A stretch of 32,000 bases of DNA from Erysipelotrichaceae bacterium OH741_COT-311 (GTDB lineage Bacteria; Bacillota_I; Bacilli_A; Erysipelotrichales; Erysipelotrichaceae), in assembly GCA_003858585.1 (NCBI GenBank), contig RQZE01000006.1, forward strand, positions 96,823-128,822, read 5' to 3'. Below, in pieces: positions 6,025-12,283 of this stretch. Position 1 is the stretch's first letter. The number at the start of each line of letters is the position of its first letter. The notes below the pieces were generated by a model. It saw only the letters and a list, made by a program, of their open reading frames with translations, was not told the origin of the DNA and did not search any database. Both the position numbers and the translations under genes were made by a program.

Positions 6025-6261
6025 ATGAATTGGACAATAAGAAATGTAATAAGTGGTGATGAAAAAGAGCTGGCTTATATACAAACAGAGAGTTGGAAGG
6101 AAGCCTTTAAACATATTCTTTCAGAAGAGTTACTTAAAATATATACAGATAAAAATCGTTCTATGAAGATGTACAAACGCTTAATCGATGAAGGTATTGG
6201 ACATGGATATATCTTAGAAGTAAACGGTAATCCTCATTGTATTGCATGGTGGGTTGCATAA
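6025..6261 (+). pseudogene. GNAT acetyltransferase, 5' fragment (gene interrupted by mobile element)
   Basis: 76 native residues ending ...GNPHCIAWW, then VA-stop read from element DNA. The missing acetyl-CoA-binding half is found in frame at 12008..12283. Confidence 0.8.
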
Positions 6262-6262
6262 T
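6257..6262 (+). promoter_or_regulatory. -10 half (CATAAT) of a promoter completed only in the excised circle
   Basis: CATAAT lies 4 nt inside the left end and ~48 nt upstream of the recombinase ATG. Joined to the right end, it lies 17 nt from TTGACA (11989-11994). Confidence 0.45.
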
Positions 6263-6310
6263 ATTAACTGAACAGGAGTGATATATAGACACAAAAAGGA
6301 GGATAAAGCA

Positions 6311-8149
6311 ATGATGGAATATGCAACCAAAATCACTGCGCTATACTCCCGCCTTTCAGTTGGTGATGAGGATAGGGATGGTGGGGAAAGCAACAGTATC
6401 GTTAATCAAAAGGCATTCTTAGAACGGTATGCAAAACAGCATAAGCTGATGAACATTCGCCACTATATCGACGATGATGAAAGCGGTCGCTTCTTTGACC
6501 GTAATGCTTACACACAGATGATAAGCGATGTGGAAAACGGTAAAATCGGCATAGTCATTATGAAAGATATGACAAGGTGGGGACGAGATTATCTTCAAGT
6601 TGGGAACGCTATGGAGATATTCAGAAGAAACAATGTACGCTTTATTGCCATCAACAACGGCATTGACAGCAAAGACCAAAATACATTGGAATTTGCCCCT
6701 TTTATCAATATTATGTCGGAGTGGTACGCAAGGGATATCAGTAAGAAAGTCAAAACAGGCATTAAGACCAAAGGAGCAAGCGGAAAGCCTGTCGCAACAG
6801 AAGCCCCGTACGGCTATATCAAAGACCCTGAGAACAAAGATTATTGGATCGTCGATAAAGAAGCTGCCGAAGTGGTAAAACTCATTTTTACGCTTTTTAT
6901 GGAGGGGAAAAATAGAAATCAGATAGCCGTTTATTTGAAAGAAAAAGAAATACTAACCCCAACCTTTTATATGAAACAGCAAGACAGAGGAACCGCAAAA
7001 AGCAGAACACTCAATGAAGAAAATCGCTATAACTGGAACAAAGCAACCCTAACACGCATACTGCAAAGGCAGGAGTATTGTGGCGATGTAGTCAACTTCA
7101 AAACCGAAAAGCATTACAAAGACAAGCGAAACCACTATGTCGATAAAGATAAGTGGCAAATCACCCCCGATGTGCATGAGCCAATCATCGACCGAGCCAC
7201 CTATGAAAATGTACAGCGGATATTAAAAAATGCACCGGTAAAAAGACCGAACGGAGATGGAGAAATCCACCCATTATCGGGATTGATGTACTGTAAAGAT
7301 TGCGGTACGAAAATGCACATTCGCACCATACACAAGAATAATAAAATACAGCATGTAACCTATTGTAGCGAATATGCCAAAGGCAAAGCCAAGCACCCGA
7401 AATGCCATTCCCCACATCGCATTGATGTCGATGATGTCATGGAAACGCTCAAAGAGATTTTACGAAAGATAGGCAAGTTTTCATTCACAAACAAATCAGA
7501 GTTTGAAGCATTGGTAAAAAACAGTCTTGCCAAAGAACAGACCGAAGAAGTAGGGAAACAAAAAAATCGTATCCCACAAATCACAGATAGATTGGAACAG
7601 ATAGAAAGAGTGATGAATAAACTGTATGAAGATAACGCACTGGGAAATATCGAGCCGAAACGCTATGAACAACTATCGGGGAAATATGCAGAAGAATATT
7701 ACAGCTTAAAAGCGGAACAGGAGCAAATAGAAGAACGCTTATCCGAATTTGAAAATGCCAACCAAAGAGCCAAGAATTTTATAAGGCTTGCTGAAAGCTA
7801 CTCAGACTTTGAAGAACTTACCCCCACTGCTATCAATGAATTTATCAGTAAAATAGTAGTGCATGAGCGAGATGTCAAAAGAGCAAAATATGCCGTTCAG
7901 CGAATCGAAGTCTATTTCAACTATATCGGAAAATTTGAAAATGAACTCACAAAACAGATCGAGCCGACAGAACAGGAAATGATACAGATGAGAGAAGAAA
8001 TCGAAGAAGCTAAGAAAGAAAAAGCACGAGCATATCGTAGGGAATATTACAAAGAATACCGAGCCAAAAATATTGAAAAATGCCGAGAGTATGAAAAAGT
8101 AAAGGCAAGAGAGTATAGAGCAAAAAAGAAGCTACAAGCAACAACCTAA
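6311..8149 (+). CDS. large serine recombinase (TnpX-like)
   Basis: AGGAGG at 6297-6302, 8 nt before the ATG at 6311. N-terminal resolvase catalytic pattern ALYSRLSVGDED...NQ. Recombinase domain, Cys-rich zinc-ribbon region (CKDCGTKMH...YCSEY...KCH) and a long coiled-coil C-terminus. Confidence 0.9.
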   Translation: MMEYATKITALYSRLSVGDEDRDGGESNSIVNQKAFLERYAKQHKLMNIRHYIDDDESGRFFDRNAYTQMISDVENGKIGIVIMKDMTRWGRDYLQVGNAMEIFRRNNVRFIAINNGIDSKDQNTLEFAPFINIMSEWYARDISKKVKTGIKTKGASGKPVATEAPYGYIKDPENKDYWIVDKEAAEVVKLIFTLFMEGKNRNQIAVYLKEKEILTPTFYMKQQDRGTAKSRTLNEENRYNWNKATLTRILQRQEYCGDVVNFKTEKHYKDKRNHYVDKDKWQITPDVHEPIIDRATYENVQRILKNAPVKRPNGDGEIHPLSGLMYCKDCGTKMHIRTIHKNNKIQHVTYCSEYAKGKAKHPKCHSPHRIDVDDVMETLKEILRKIGKFSFTNKSEFEALVKNSLAKEQTEEVGKQKNRIPQITDRLEQIERVMNKLYEDNALGNIEPKRYEQLSGKYAEEYYSLKAEQEQIEERLSEFENANQRAKNFIRLAESYSDFEELTPTAINEFISKIVVHERDVKRAKYAVQRIEVYFNYIGKFENELTKQIEPTEQEMIQMREEIEEAKKEKARAYRREYYKEYRAKNIEKCREYEKVKAREYRAKKKLQATT

Positions 8150-8174
8150 AACCAAATATCAACCAAGCAAAAGA

Positions 8175-8203
8175 GGTTTCCGAAGTACAGGAAATCTTTT
8201 TTT
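8175..8203 (+). terminator. rho-independent terminator after recombinase
   Basis: GGTTTCC-8nt-GGAAATC stem with one G:U pair, followed by TTTTTTT. Confidence 0.55.
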
Positions 8204-8225
8204 GTGCAAGTAAAAGGAGGATTAA

Positions 8226-8408
8226 ATGACCGAAAAACAAAAACCACAGACCAACGAAGAACAAGCGACACACCGAAAACCTGATGGCATTCTAACAAAA
8301 AAGATGAATGGAAAGACCTTTGTAACAGAAATATATTTTGATAAAAAGAGCAAGGATACCTTTCAAGATAAGCTGTTAAAGATAGTGCAAGCCCAGCGGA
8401 AAGAATAA
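8226..8408 (+). CDS. TnpW-like small transposon-encoded protein
   Basis: RBS AAAGGAGG. GKTFVTEIYFDKKSKDTFQDKLLKIV resembles the TnpW family pattern (..TTY.V.V.FS..SKET..DKL.RLI) as I recall it. Confidence 0.5.
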   Translation: MTEKQKPQTNEEQATHRKPDGILTKKMNGKTFVTEIYFDKKSKDTFQDKLLKIVQAQRKE

Positions 8409-8494
8409 ATAAAACAAACACTTTGTATTTTGCTTCTCCGTGCTTTTCAATCTGTTCCTATGAAAAACACGAAAGCAAGCAGAAAATCCGACAG

Positions 8495-8523
8495 TGGAAA
8501 AAATGCCCTCAAAATGGTATAAT
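8495..8523 (+). promoter_or_regulatory. extended -10 promoter of cargo slot 1
   Basis: TGGAAA - 17 nt - TGgTATAAT (TG at 8515-8516, TATAAT at 8518-8523). The same 12-mer ATGGTATAATAT recurs at 11270-11281. Confidence 0.5.
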
Positions 8524-8587
8524 ATTGATAAACAATTAGAGAAACAAGTTTGAATTTATTGAGATGAACTTTGGGAGAGGTATTAAG

Positions 8588-9109
8588 ATGGGTGGGGTTT
8601 GGCTATTGCTAATATTCTTAACTGTAAGATTTGGTTTGTTTTCTATCATAAAAAAAGAAGCTATACAGCGAGCAGGATATTTTGCTCCAATACAAAAATC
8701 TGAAAAAGTAGCATATTACATCTACCAAGTATCTAATATAGCATTATTAATATGCGTGATGGTATCATCAGTAAAAATTGATTTTTCTCTTCAATTTTAT
8801 TTAGGCTTATCGCTCTTTTTGGTAGGTATATTATTATGTGCAATTTCAGTTGTGTGTTTTGCTTTCCCGAATGATGAGGGGTTAAATACCAATGGTATTT
8901 ATAAATTTTCAAGAAATCCGATGTATGTGGCTTATTTTGTTTGCTTCTTAGGGATGTCTTTATTAATACAGTCATTAATCATGTTGGTAATGGTGTTAAT
9001 CTTCCAGATTTCTGCTCATTGGATTATTGTATCGGAAGAAAGATGGTGTTTAGAAAAGTTCGGAAAAAGCTATGAAGATTATACAAAAAAGGTTCGACGA
9101 TACATTTAA
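8588..9109 (+). CDS. isoprenylcysteine carboxyl methyltransferase (ICMT/PEMT)-like membrane protein, cargo 1
   Basis: Polytopic membrane protein with FSRNPMYVAYFVCFLGMSL and SEERWCLEKFGKSYEDY motifs typical of the ICMT/PEMT-like family. The ATG at 8588 follows GGGAGAGG; the alternative start at 8564 has no RBS. Spot GC 27% (line 8601-8660). Confidence 0.6.
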   Translation: MGGVWLLLIFLTVRFGLFSIIKKEAIQRAGYFAPIQKSEKVAYYIYQVSNIALLICVMVSSVKIDFSLQFYLGLSLFLVGILLCAISVVCFAFPNDEGLNTNGIYKFSRNPMYVAYFVCFLGMSLLIQSLIMLVMVLIFQISAHWIIVSEERWCLEKFGKSYEDYTKKVRRYI

Positions 9110-9156
9110 ACTATCTCCTCGTTTGTTGGAGTGAAGTAAACAAAAGCTATAACATG

Positions 9157-9217
9157 ACAATTCACGAAACAGTAAATTAAATCGGTTTACTGTTTTTTTA
9201 TTGCTCAAAATCAAGAA
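9157..9217 (+). repeat. ~60-nt direct repeat copy A (contains terminator)
   Basis: Hand alignment with 11903-11963 gives ~49/61 identities: ACAATT...GAAACAGTAAAT...GGTTTnCTGTTTTTT..TTGCTCAA. Confidence 0.7.
9167..9199 (+). terminator. rho-independent terminator of cargo slot 1
   Basis: Perfect 10-bp stem AAACAGTAAA / TTTACTGTTT with a 9-nt loop and a T-run. Confidence 0.7.
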
Positions 9218-9232
9218 GAAAGGACAAGGAAA

Positions 9233-9553
9233 ATGAAAAATATAGAAGAAAAGATTTTAATGGCAGAAGAAGAAATCAAGCAGTTACGAAACAAAAGAAA
9301 AAAGCTCATCAGTCAGCAGAAAGAGGAGGAACGAAAAAAGAGAGATAGACGGCTTTATGAAAAAGGAGGAGTATTTGAAAGTATCTTTACTGAAAGCAAA
9401 GAATTAACCAAAGATGAATTTTATCAGCTCATAAGTTCTCTAAATCATAAAGAAGAAATCCGACAAAAAATCAAGAAAATCATAGCTAAGCGAGAAGAAA
9501 ACGAAAACCAAAATATAGAAACACAAGAGGAAGTAACGGACATCGGGGAATAG
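9233..9553 (+). CDS. DUF3847-like coiled-coil protein (relaxase-associated accessory)
   Basis: EEEIKQLRNKRKKLISQQKEEERKKRDRRLYEKGGVFESIF matches the DUF3847 pattern (..ERKARTRRLIERGAILESL..) that I recall upstream of Mob genes in Clostridia. Confidence 0.55.
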   Translation: MKNIEEKILMAEEEIKQLRNKRKKLISQQKEEERKKRDRRLYEKGGVFESIFTESKELTKDEFYQLISSLNHKEEIRQKIKKIIAKREENENQNIETQEEVTDIGE

Positions 9554-9554
9554 T

Positions 9555-9664
9555 CCCTTGTTTACAAGGGTGCACTTATACACCCTAAAGGGTGTGTGCG
9601 TTCTCCGAAGGCTCTTGCAGAGAGCATATCAGCTAAACGCTGATACAGGGGAGCTACACTCCCC
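9555..9664 (+). promoter_or_regulatory. candidate oriT (four hairpins plus MobQ-like nic core)
   Basis: Inverted repeats: CCCTTGT/ACAAGGG (9555-9570), ACACCCT/AGGGTGT (9580-9595), TATCAGC/GCTGATA (9627-9645), GGGGAG/CTCCCC (9648-9664). GTGCGTTCTCC (9596-9606), just 3' of the second repeat, resembles the RSF1010/R1162 nic region GTGCGCCCTCC (from memory). Confidence 0.5.
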
Positions 9665-9794
9665 TACGGAAATAAATTTCCTACCCCTTGTGTACTTCCC
9701 AAAAGAAATCGGATAAAAAGCAATTCGATTTTTTTAGGAAGTCTTATCCATCGCCACATCAAAGTATCAGAACAACGAAAGGGGGTTTTCTCTT

Positions 9795-11255
9795 ATGGCA
9801 ATATATCATCTCAGTATCAAAATTATCTCAAGAGGCAAAGGCAAGAGTGCAGTTGCAGCTTCCGCCTATCGAAGTGGCGAAAAGATAAAAAATGAGTATG
9901 ACGGCATAGTCCATGACTTTACAAGAAAAGGAGGAATCGCCCATACCGAAATTCTATTACCACAAAATGCACCACAGGAGTTTTTGGACAGGGGAACATT
10001 ATGGAATAGCGTGGAGAAAATCGAAAAAAGTAAAAACTCACAGCTTGCAAGAGAAATAGAAATCGCCTTACCCAAAGAATTAAACCGAGAAAAACAGATA
10101 GAACTTGTACGAGAATATGTAAAAGAAAATTTTGTGAAAGTCGGTATGTGTGCCGATATTGCCTTACACGACAAAAATGACAGAAACCCACACGCACATA
10201 TCCTATTAACAATGCGACCGTTAAACGAAGATACAACATGGGGAGCAAAATCAAAAAAAGAATATATCCTTGATGAAAACGGAGAAAAAGTAAAACTCAA
10301 AAATGGCAATTACAAAACCAAAAAAATCAATATAGTCGATTGGAATGAGCAAGAAAAAGCGGAAGAGTGGCGAAAAGCATGGGCAGATATTACCAACAAA
10401 TATTTGGAAGAAAACAATATACAGGAAAAAGTGGATCACCGTTCTTATCAAAGACAAGGAATAGAACAAATACCGACTATTCATTTAGGAGTATCGGCAA
10501 CACAAATGGAAAAGAAAGGCATAGACACAGACAGAGGAAATATCAACAGAGAAATCAGAAAACAGAATAGGCTATTACAGGAAATAAAGTTAAGAATAAA
10601 AGCCTTACTAAATTGGATAAGAGGAATTGGAAAAGAAGAAAAGGCAGAAACTGAAAATATCAAATCAGCCCTCCCATCCAAAGAAAATCTATTGTCAGTT
10701 TTTGAAAATCTTATCCGTAAAAATGCAGATAACCATAATACAGATTTAGAGCAATACATCGAAAGCTATCAATTCTTAAAAGAGAACAATATCATTTCTG
10801 TATCTGAACTGAAAGAAAACATAGTTACTTTAAGAGATAAGAACTACAAGACCACAAGAGCTATTAAAGATACTGAAAAGCAGATTGATGATAGAGTACA
10901 GCTTATCGACCACGCCGAAAAATATTTGAAGCATAAAGACACCTATAAAGCCTATATCAAGCTGAAGAAAAACAAACAAGATATTTTCTACAATGAACAT
11001 ACCGCAGAGATTATTTTATTTGAAAGTGCGAAGAAATATTTGAAAGAACATTTAGGAGAAAGCAAGTCCTTAACTATATCTAAATGGAAATCGGAAGTAA
11101 CCGCCTTGAAGAAAGAAAAAGACAGTCTGTATTCTCAAATCATAGACCTACGGAAAGAAGTGGAACAAGCAGAAAGTGTAAGAAGCTGTATAGAGAAATT
11201 ACAACAAGAAAACAGAGAAATAACACAGGTTAAGAAGCAAGAATTAGACCTGTAA
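9795..11255 (+). CDS. MobA/MobL (MobQ-type) relaxase
   Basis: Canonical N-terminus MAIYHLSIKIISRGKGKSAVAASAYRSGEKI (catalytic Tyr). Histidine triad region HDKNDRNPHAHILLT. Coiled-coil C-terminal half. Confidence 0.9.
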   Translation: MAIYHLSIKIISRGKGKSAVAASAYRSGEKIKNEYDGIVHDFTRKGGIAHTEILLPQNAPQEFLDRGTLWNSVEKIEKSKNSQLAREIEIALPKELNREKQIELVREYVKENFVKVGMCADIALHDKNDRNPHAHILLTMRPLNEDTTWGAKSKKEYILDENGEKVKLKNGNYKTKKINIVDWNEQEKAEEWRKAWADITNKYLEENNIQEKVDHRSYQRQGIEQIPTIHLGVSATQMEKKGIDTDRGNINREIRKQNRLLQEIKLRIKALLNWIRGIGKEEKAETENIKSALPSKENLLSVFENLIRKNADNHNTDLEQYIESYQFLKENNIISVSELKENIVTLRDKNYKTTRAIKDTEKQIDDRVQLIDHAEKYLKHKDTYKAYIKLKKNKQDIFYNEHTAEIILFESAKKYLKEHLGESKSLTISKWKSEVTALKKEKDSLYSQIIDLRKEVEQAESVRSCIEKLQQENREITQVKKQELDL

Positions 11256-11279
11256 AACTAATTGAAAATATGGTATAAT
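11251..11279 (+). promoter_or_regulatory. extended -10 promoter of cargo slot 2
   Basis: TGTAAA - 17 nt - TGgTATAAT (TATAAT at 11274-11279). Same geometry and 12-mer as the promoter at 8495-8523. The downstream leader shares AAACAA(A)TTAGA with slot 1. Confidence 0.5.
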
Positions 11280-11312
11280 ATAACAAACAGCGAGTAAAAC
11301 AAATTAGAAGTT

Positions 11313-11873
11313 GTGGAGGTGAAAATTATAGATACTTCAAAATTCTCATGGAATGAGTTTGAACAAAATTTGTTTCAAGATGGAAAGTGGGAAATACCAT
11401 CAAAGTACAAAATTAAAATAAATGATTCATCAGAGAAAAGATACAAATTAGAGATGATTTTATATAAGATGTCTCACAAATATGTAGCAAGATGGGCATT
11501 AGAAAATGCTCAAGCGTTCTTATCTTTTATAGAGATTGGTGATAAAGAGTTAAAGGAATCAATCATGTGTGAAACAACAGCGGTATTAAATATGCGTATT
11601 GACGGGAAATCAAGTGCGTATAAACTGAGAAACGCTGGATTTTTAGCGAATAAATTAGGACAAATGTCAATTAATGATTTAAGTAAATATTCTGCAAGAG
11701 TATTTGCACAATCCATAGCAACTGGTCATATGAGAGGACATGCTATTGTATCATCTGATTATGCTATTAAAGTTATTAATATTTTATTCCCTAATGATAA
11801 TTTAAAAGTCGAAGAAGAAAGAAATCGGCAAATTGAATTAGCGAATAAAATTATAAAGGAATATGATATTTAA
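11313..11873 (+). CDS. hypothetical helical protein, possibly Imm-5-like putative immunity protein, cargo 2
   Basis: ARVFAQSIATGHMRGHAIVSSDYAIKVI resembles the conserved helix pair (A..HM..HA...A.YA.KA) of a family I recall being annotated as putative immunity protein. The start is ambiguous: GTG 11313 lacks an RBS, while GGAGGTG (11316-11322) is followed only by ATT 11325 or ATA 11328. Spot GC 22%. Confidence 0.4.
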   Translation: MEVKIIDTSKFSWNEFEQNLFQDGKWEIPSKYKIKINDSSEKRYKLEMILYKMSHKYVARWALENAQAFLSFIEIGDKELKESIMCETTAVLNMRIDGKSSAYKLRNAGFLANKLGQMSINDLSKYSARVFAQSIATGHMRGHAIVSSDYAIKVINILFPNDNLKVEEERNRQIELANKIIKEYDI

Positions 11874-11902
11874 ACAACTCCCGGTTTGTCTAATTGAATA
11901 TA

Positions 11903-11963
11903 ACAATTTGAGAAACAGTAAATCAAAAAGGTTTGCTGTTTTTTGTTGCTCAATTTTCAAAAA
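11903..11963 (+). repeat. ~60-nt direct repeat copy B (contains terminator)
   Basis: Pairs with 9157-9217 at ~80% identity by hand alignment. Confidence 0.7.
11913..11944 (+). terminator. rho-independent terminator of cargo slot 2
   Basis: AAACAGTAAA / TTTGCTGTTT stem with one G:U pair, a 9-nt loop and a T-run. Confidence 0.65.
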
Positions 11964-11988
11964 ATCGTCCATAAATATAAACAGGCAC

Positions 11989-11994
11989 TTGACA
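11989..11994 (+). promoter_or_regulatory. -35 half (TTGACA) of the circle-junction promoter
   Basis: Consensus TTGACA lies 10 nt inside the right-end TGGG and faces outward. In the integrated state there is no -10 at proper spacing downstream. Confidence 0.45.
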
Positions 11995-12007
11995 AAACGC
12001 TCTCTGG

Positions 12008-12283
12008 GATAAAGCGCGAGATGAAGATATGTTTGGTTATGCGGAATTGATTTGCATTCATAGTATTTGTAATCAATGGAGAAAAGGCTATGGCACTAAA
12101 TTAATGAGAAAAGTATTAGAGGATATGAAAGCGAAGGGGTATGATAAGGTACTACTTTGGGTATTTAGGGATAATTATCAAGCACGTATGTTTTATGAAA
12201 AACTTGGCTTTTGTACTTTTGGTAAGATGAAAACCTATTTAAATACCGAAGAGATTTGTTATGAGAAAAAGTTAACTCTTTAG
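12008..12283 (+). pseudogene. GNAT acetyltransferase, 3' fragment
   Basis: The frame is open from 11993. From 12008 it reads DKARDEDMFGYAELICIHSICNQWRKGYGTKLMRKVL..., the GNAT motif A (Q/RxxGxG/A) half. It is in frame with 6025..6252 once the element is removed. Confidence 0.8.

Follow-up and report, generated by a model that had tools for sequence, protein, structure and literature searches.

The element and its empty site

The DNA analysed here (the window) is a stretch of 32,000 nt from contig RQZE01000006.1 of Erysipelotrichaceae bacterium OH741_COT-311 (assembly GCA_003858585.1; positions 96,823-128,822, forward strand). At positions 6252-12006 it carries an integrative mobilizable element (IME) of 5,755 bp, which combines a TnpX-type recombinase, a TnpW protein, a MobQ relaxase and cargo genes, all encoded on the + strand, and which interrupts a gene for a GNAT acetyltransferase (Table 1). 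Two hexamers located in opposite ends of this element very probably constitute a split promoter for the recombinase gene, formed only when the element is excised as a circle.

Table 1. Positions of the element's features and of the interrupted host gene, numbered from the first nucleotide of the window
Feature	Position	Strand	Basis
5' part of the disrupted host GNAT acetyltransferase gene	6025..6249	+	Open reading frame list; domain match of the rejoined protein; intact homologue P0121
Left TGGG copy (attL core); TG at 6250-6251 is the inferred crossover dinucleotide	6250..6253	+	Empty-site alignment; relatives
-10 half, CATAAT, 5 nt inside the left end	6257..6262	+	Sequence; 38/38 unique joints
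Ribosome-binding site AGGAGG, 8 nt before the ATG	6297..6302	+	Sequence; conserved in relatives
Large serine recombinase, TnpX type, 612 aa	6311..8149	+	Pfam Resolvase, Recombinase, Zn_ribbon_recom, DUF4368
TnpW-family small protein, 60 aa	8226..8408	+	Pfam PF14202, E 4.6e-11
Cargo: membrane methyltransferase-like protein (PEMT/ICMT)	8564..9109	+	Pfam PF04191, PF04140
DUF3847 protein	9233..9553	+	Pfam PF12958; same gene order in relatives
Non-coding stretch with two inverted repeats, putative origin of transfer (oriT)	9569..9738	+	Inverted repeats; plasmid similarity
MobQ (MobA/MobL) relaxase	9795..11255	+	Pfam PF03389, E 9e-102; NCBIfam MobQ above cut-off
Cargo: Imm5-like putative immunity protein	11313..11873	+	Pfam PF21805
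Terminator-like hairpin followed by TTTTGTTG	11914..11948	+	RNA fold z-score -2.67; relatives
-35 half, TTGACA, outward-facing, 10 nt before the TG crossover	11989..11994	+	Sequence; 37/38 unique joints
Right TGGG copy (attR core); TG at 12005-12006	12005..12008	+	Sequence; empty-site alignment
3' part of the disrupted GNAT gene	12009..12283	+	Open reading frames; Pfam; empty-site alignment

When the flanks of the element are rejoined, they encode a protein of 167 aa in which the Pfam match to Acetyltransf_1 runs unbroken across the junction. A protein search with this rejoined sequence retrieved, from another assembly, an intact GNAT gene that is 98% identical (P0121, at locus L098), and the contig that carries it has the same neighbours as the window, DUF3267 upstream and MgtE downstream. 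The uninterrupted site reads ATTGCATGGTGGGATAAAGCGCG, that is, the left flank of the window, a single TGGG and the right flank; a longer stretch of the same DNA, aligned with the window flanks, is CATTGTATTGCATGGTGGGATAAAGCGCGAGATG, and the string predicted for an empty-site search was GCATGGTGGGATAAAGCG. Since nothing but a single TGGG stands between the two flanks in L098, this alignment proves the boundaries of the element at 6252 and 12006. Boundaries at the shared TGGG had been called earlier from the window sequence alone (hereafter the original prediction), and the empty site confirms that call independently. As to the position of the exchange within TGGG, comparison with the family of relatives described below points to TG as the crossover dinucleotide, since in off-target insertions of the family (L021, L043, L049 and L065) the left and right junctions, attL and attR, have only TG in common.

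A probable split promoter at the circle joint

The right end of the element reads GGCAC TTGACA AAACGCTCTC TGGG ATAAAGCG, and the left end ATTGCATGG TGGG TTG CATAAT ATTAACTG. Joining the two through the common TGGG gives TTGACA-AAACGCTCTCTGGGTTG-CATAAT, with a spacer of 17 nt. The empty site fixes the boundaries, and therefore the joint has this spacing wherever the exchange falls within TGGG. The joint matches the sigma-A consensus at 11 of 12 positions, and 48 nt separate it from the start codon of the recombinase gene (6311). The predicted joint sequence contains CGCTCTCTGGGTTGCATAAT, and the 29-mer TTGACAAAACGCTCTCTGGGTTGCATAAT marks it. This arrangement is the one that the original prediction had put forward; both hexamers, both copies of TGGG, the ribosome-binding site and the ATG all lie where it had placed them, and its 17-nt spacer is borne out by the sequence and by the empty site.

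In the integrated state, the hexamer found 17 nt upstream of CATAAT is TCATTG (6234-6239), which agrees with TTGACA at one position in six and is, as had been claimed, a poor -35. Only 58 nt separate the left end from the ATG, and they hold no usable promoter-like site: of two candidates considered there, TTAACT...TATATA was rejected for its spacer of 12 nt, and TAGACA-18-AATGAT because it overlaps the start codon. A scan of the window's attL and attR for promoter matches likewise gave nothing usable. The -35 and -10 hexamers thus lie in opposite ends and come within 16-18 nt of each other only by joining of the ends, and the adjacent recombinase gene, at which they would then be aimed, lacks a promoter of its own when integrated. 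Sites of this quality are rare. Only two that match at least 11 of 12 positions with a 16-18 nt spacer occur in the whole window, both strands included, and among 200,000 random joins of window sequence a junction-spanning match of at least 11/12 arose at a frequency of 5e-4.

The order of features along the joint is terminator-like hairpin, A-tract, -35, crossover, -10, leader, ribosome-binding site and recombinase gene. The A-rich tract stands just before TTGACA, between it and the hairpin. The leader predicted for a transcript from the joint (about 6270-6310, 41 nt) is unstructured according to RNA folding. The hairpin itself, which follows the last element gene and precedes the -35 by 48 nt, has an A/U-rich stem of 11 bp (11914-11940). 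A strict consensus terminator scan missed it, the T-run being absorbed into the A-T stem, and the scan of the relatives allowed all stem lengths. A similar hairpin with a T-run was found at the corresponding position of 14 out of 33 unique right ends, compared with 3.8% of control windows inside elements. Such a hairpin would shield the joint promoter from transcription circling the element.

Conservation in a family of relatives

A scan of one genome per species yielded 80 loci (L001-L080) with recombinases 72-94% identical; a protein scan of IMG/VR gave one relative only, and was not used. The hosts are many Firmicutes, oral and gut, streptococci and others, plus some unexpected bins. The window's own element is also present on a 15-kb contig of SRR9701139. 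The hit lists also contain recombinases 87-92% identical from Corynebacterium pseudotuberculosis, and from Riemerella, Desulfovibrio, Fusobacterium and "Proteobacteria" metagenome-assembled genomes; these matches in distant taxa reflect either an unusually broad host range or artefacts of binning or contamination.

Upstream of every recombinase gene of the family, some 60 nt ahead of its start, the homology of the left end begins at TG followed by 5 nt and CATAAT, while the right ends of the relatives finish at TTGACA, 10 nt and TG. Both ends could be recovered for 48 elements, of 4.8-8.5 kb, which gave 38 unique reconstructed joints. All of these except one (L032, TTGACG) have TTGACA, CATAAT is present in every one, and the spacer is 17 nt in 48/48 elements; the score of the joint is 11/12 in 47 elements and 10/12 in the remaining one. 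When the same 48 elements are integrated, the highest score within 160 nt upstream of the ATG is 7-9/12, and the hexamer that takes the place of the -35 in attL shares 0-2 of six bases with TTGACA. Variation among the unique joints affects the bases next to the hexamers and the 5 nt to the left and right of the crossover. TG is found at both junctions in 47/48 copies. In one copy, L034, the dinucleotides differ, being TG in attL and TA in attR.

Joints in more distant lineages

A 12.2-kb Tn4451-like element with a MobQ relaxase and TnpW is present in OY725878.1 (~149057-161211; L112 8910-8911, L113 3812-3813). The N-terminus of its recombinase is 94.7% identical to the TnpX of PDB entry 2MHC. 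It has GA at both junctions, and its excision restores a single open reading frame of 2,520 aa. Its joint reads TTGACG-AAGTCCAGCCC-GA-AGGC-TATACT, again with a spacer of 17 nt, in which the crossover stands in the register 11+2+4, as against 10+2+5 in the window element. The recombinase is ~36% identical to that of the window, and the end sequences are unrelated except for the hexamers. Since -35, 17 nt and -10 were kept while crossover, register and attachment-site sequences changed, the comparison argues, more strongly than anything else found here, that the promoter geometry itself is under selection.

In a third lineage, at 42% identity (a Campylobacter/Subdoligranulum element), the joint is TTGACT-18/19-TATGCT. 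With it, the design is seen again in two distant lineages of the TnpX clade whose end sequences differ. The spacer is 18 nt in the joint inferred from the integrated copy of Campylobacter coli pCC14983A-1, and reads 19 nt in OY725856.1, an 8.5-kb circular record whose origin lies exactly at the joint. This record (L085), a "plasmid" of Subdoligranulum variabile, encodes a recombinase, a MobQ relaxase and, directly downstream of the recombinase, an open reading frame of the size of TnpV; the corresponding frame in the near-identical C. coli copy is annotated TnpV. OY725856.1 is probably an excised circular IME. The same element is also found integrated in a UV-repair gene on C. coli plasmids (L086, L114), where the junctions differ from each other, attL being ..CATA|GGG and attR ..CTCTG|GTA. 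For such non-identical junction dinucleotides, here and in L034, later mutation, a tolerated crossover mismatch and, in the 42% lineage, a one-base shift (GG) are all possible.

The target site

Of 81 family copies, 71 are inserted at one spot in the gene for a coupling protein, between ...EYGSAR and WG..., and without exception in the orientation of that gene. Rejoining the target gives a protein with the domains T4SS-DNA_transf, TraG-D_C and TrwB, by which the main target is the VirD4-type coupling protein (traG) of conjugative elements. The window copy, in the GNAT gene, is an off-target insertion at a traG look-alike site: it occupies GCATGG TG GGATAAAG, compared with GCAAGA TG GGGAAATG at the traG site, and of the 16 positions counted around the core the two agree at 11. 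In family copies, the truncated host reading frame always ends at a TAA within the -10 hexamer (..GTT GCA TAA), and the truncated GNAT frame does so at 6259-6261. The idea that off-target copies, too, are always co-oriented with their host genes, which one would expect under selection for read-through, found no support, as 3 of 10 look anti-oriented (L021, L049 and L084). At L100 (6612-15660), an IME follows a truncated coupling-protein fragment of 112 aa, and further downstream lie a second DUF3801 gene and an apparently full-length coupling-protein gene, an arrangement that suggests tandem or rearranged conjugative elements.

Alternative readings

Several observations weigh against a promoter at the joint. 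The conservation of the 38 unique joints extends beyond the hexamers to some 45 nt of each end, and neighbours that play no part in a promoter, AAAAYGC after the -35 and GCGTC[CA]ATAA upstream, are equally conserved. Both hexamers also fall within ~25 bp of the crossover, in the expected binding site of the recombinase. The -10 of the joint is not preceded by an extended TG motif, and in the third lineage the -10 is weaker and the spacer 18-19 nt long. In addition, exact-pattern scans of the 80 loci, of the JGI metagenome contigs (with two patterns) and of IMG/VR revealed no true joint; a looser pattern gave 11 matches in metagenomes, all of them unrelated promoters or chance. Small contigs (2-6.6 kb) with close relatives were considered as possible circles, and all four proved to be integrated copies with flanks. 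The 10 places carrying P0001, considered in the same way, were all integrated as well.

As the ~45 nt of each end are conserved throughout, conservation within the close family does not separate a promoter function from an attachment-site function. TTGACA and CATAAT could be recognition motifs of the recombinase in its attachment half-sites, their likeness to a promoter being incidental and the recombinase being expressed by other means. By inspection, the mirror of TTGACA in the left half-site reads TTAATA/TTAAGA on the other strand, 4/6 identical, a partial dyad that speaks for this reading. We nevertheless judge this explanation unlikely. It leaves to chance, estimated at ~5e-4 to 1e-3, an 11/12 match with 17-nt spacing, in the right orientation and 48 nt before an otherwise promoterless gene. 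Moreover, for motifs serving recognition only, it would be unexpected that the Tn4451-like element keeps the -35, the 17 nt and the -10 despite other ends, another crossover and another register; and the two roles are not mutually exclusive.

Expression of the recombinase might also be driven mainly by read-through, from the host gene when the element is integrated and from the element's own co-oriented genes around the circle, the split promoter being minor. The host-gene fragment lies on the strand of the recombinase gene and is not separated from it by a terminator, the copies in traG are co-oriented with it, and the element genes all share one orientation. This account of the recombinase's main source is quite improbable in our view, given that, in many relatives as in the window, the last gene is followed by a terminator-like hairpin with a T-run ahead of the -35, that the off-target copies show no consistent co-orientation, and that an invariant consensus -35 at a fixed distance of 17 nt goes unexplained. 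Least credible is a role for the outward TTGACA as the -35 of a hybrid promoter serving the downstream host fragment in the integrated state, as occurs in some insertion sequences: the hexamer does point outward to the 3' part of the host gene, but no -10-like hexamer follows 16-18 nt downstream (the window has AAGCGC there, and the attR scan found nothing of at least 8/12), the traG flanks are equally poor, and the fragment that would be transcribed is the 3' part of a gene out of its context. A promoter split between the two ends and aimed at the recombinase gene accordingly remains the explanation that we favour. We infer its activity, like the timing of expression, the autorepression and the read-through discussed below, from sequence.

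A possible link to conjugation

According to the mechanism that we propose, excision would bring TTGACA, 10 nt from the crossover, next to CATAAT, 5 nt from it, to create a near-consensus sigma-A promoter. Once the element has been excised, or has been mobilized into a new cell and has recircularized, a burst of recombinase from the joint promoter would allow the non-replicating circle to integrate. Integration would in turn split the promoter, switch the recombinase gene off and so stabilize the insertion. The hexamers lie inside the attachment site, and for this reason the joint promoter is probably also repressed by the recombinase once this is bound. As long as the element is integrated, read-through from the co-oriented host gene (traG in most relatives) would be the only transcription to reach the recombinase gene, and is the likely source of its basal expression. 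The original prediction, in which the two hexamers assemble only in the excised circle, hence stands for the promoter and not necessarily for all transcription, as read-through from the host gene can reach the recombinase.

These considerations lead us to a broader scheme, held tentatively and for all its parts jointly, in which the split promoter might be one half of a two-state switch common to a very widespread family of IMEs parasitizing traG. The promoterless recombinase gene sits co-oriented inside the coupling-protein gene; hence the integrated recombinase could conceivably be transcribed only when the conjugation operon of the host element switches on. The joint promoter might then take over in the circle, in the donor or in the recipient, and drive reintegration. 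The scheme further supposes, as a possibility on the same tentative footing, that TnpX-clade lineages have preserved this geometry while their crossover dinucleotide and target changed. If it were true, excision and repair of traG would be timed to conjugation.

Other features of the element

The DUF3847 gene is the usual upstream partner of MobQ in the elements of the relatives. The inverted repeats that follow it (9569-9606 and 9699-9738) lie just upstream of the relaxase gene. The non-coding stretch in which they lie, 9570-9772, is 84% identical to an unannotated stretch beside a ParB gene of the Clostridium perfringens plasmid pSXP-169, and may represent an oriT common to unrelated replicons. 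No toxin gene lies near the Imm5-like immunity gene. The cargo varies widely among the relatives, and includes helix-turn-helix regulators, Crp-like regulators and methyltransferases. A search of the whole window against Rfam gave no match.

Comparison with known systems

The principle of a circle-junction promoter is not new, and the window element adds none to it: it was established in 2000 for Tn4451 and Tn4453, whose circular intermediate forms the TnpX promoter, according to the title of Lyras & Rood (Mol Microbiol 38:588) as cited in PMC13023037 and PMC9765467. What the present analysis contributes is, in the first place, an element whose boundaries and joint are proven from an empty site. 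To this are added the invariance of the split promoter throughout a large and host-promiscuous family of small mobilizable elements, mostly inside a coupling-protein gene, and comparative support for its function from the retention of its geometry in a distant Tn4451-like lineage. The interest of the system lies in the family-wide invariance and in the possible coupling to conjugation via insertion in traG. In practical terms, TTGACA + 10 nt + TG, together with TG + 5 nt + CATAAT, is a precise delimiter of such elements in genomes, and the joint sequence offers a ready assay of excision, by PCR or by mining of reads.

The original prediction had likened the design to that of Tn4451 and Tn4453, and in this it is supported by the sequence and by comparison. 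The recombinase is a large serine recombinase of the TnpX type by its domains and by its best match among solved structures, PDB 2MHC "TnpX" (54% identity over 114 residues, E 8e-31, in the catalytic domain); it has the DUF4368 C-terminal region, a TnpW gene is present, and the recombinase gene is at the left end without a promoter of its own. The left-end -10, the right-end -35, the 2-bp crossover and the 17-nt spacer are also alike, a layout verified on the element of OY725878.1, and the same split is found in 48/48 relatives. The kinship is nevertheless that of a relative and not of a strict member of the family. The crossover is TG instead of GA, one base further from the -10, and the end sequences are unrelated except for the hexamers. 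The relaxase is MobQ and not TnpZ (Mob_Pre), and TnpV, TnpY and catP are missing; scanning the six element proteins against Pfam gave no match to the TnpV or Mob_Pre families. Whereas Tn4451 inserts at many GA sites (PMC5704250, Table 1), the family of the window element strongly prefers one site in traG. A tblastn search of plasmids with TnpW, made to locate Tn4451, returned no match.

IMEs with serine integrases inserted in the traG gene of conjugative elements of the Tn5252 superfamily are known (Coluzzi 2017, PMC5357655; Guedon 2017, PMC5704250; Tn6104 in Brouwer 2011, PMC3158075). Like these Ser_1 elements (IME_Sco1050_traG, Tn6104), the window element is small and has a single serine recombinase and a MobQ-type relaxase, and its relatives, one of which, 92% identical, is in a Streptococcus constellatus genome (L006), are mostly inserted in the VirD4-type coupling-protein gene with a 2-bp flanking repeat. 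By its site of insertion the family as a whole fits this group, and the window copy, in a chromosomal GNAT gene, differs from it; the likeness was drawn from the descriptions in these papers. A junction promoter is not mentioned in PMC5357655, where the word "promoter" has no match, or in PMC3158075, where none of its four matches concerns a joint.

Circle-junction promoters are also described for IS911, IS2, IS30 and IS110/IS1111, and state-dependent int promoters for ICEclc and ICEKp1 (PMC13023037; PMC11187229). The logic is the same in all of them, strong expression of the recombinase or transposase being possible only from the excised circle, since it is by excision that promoter elements come to stand ahead of the gene. 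The enzymes are unrelated to the window's, those of the insertion sequences and of these integrative elements being DDE/DEDD transposases or tyrosine integrases. For ICEclc and ICEKp1, what is placed upstream of the gene is a complete promoter from the far end, whereas the window element would obtain its promoter by fusing two halves.

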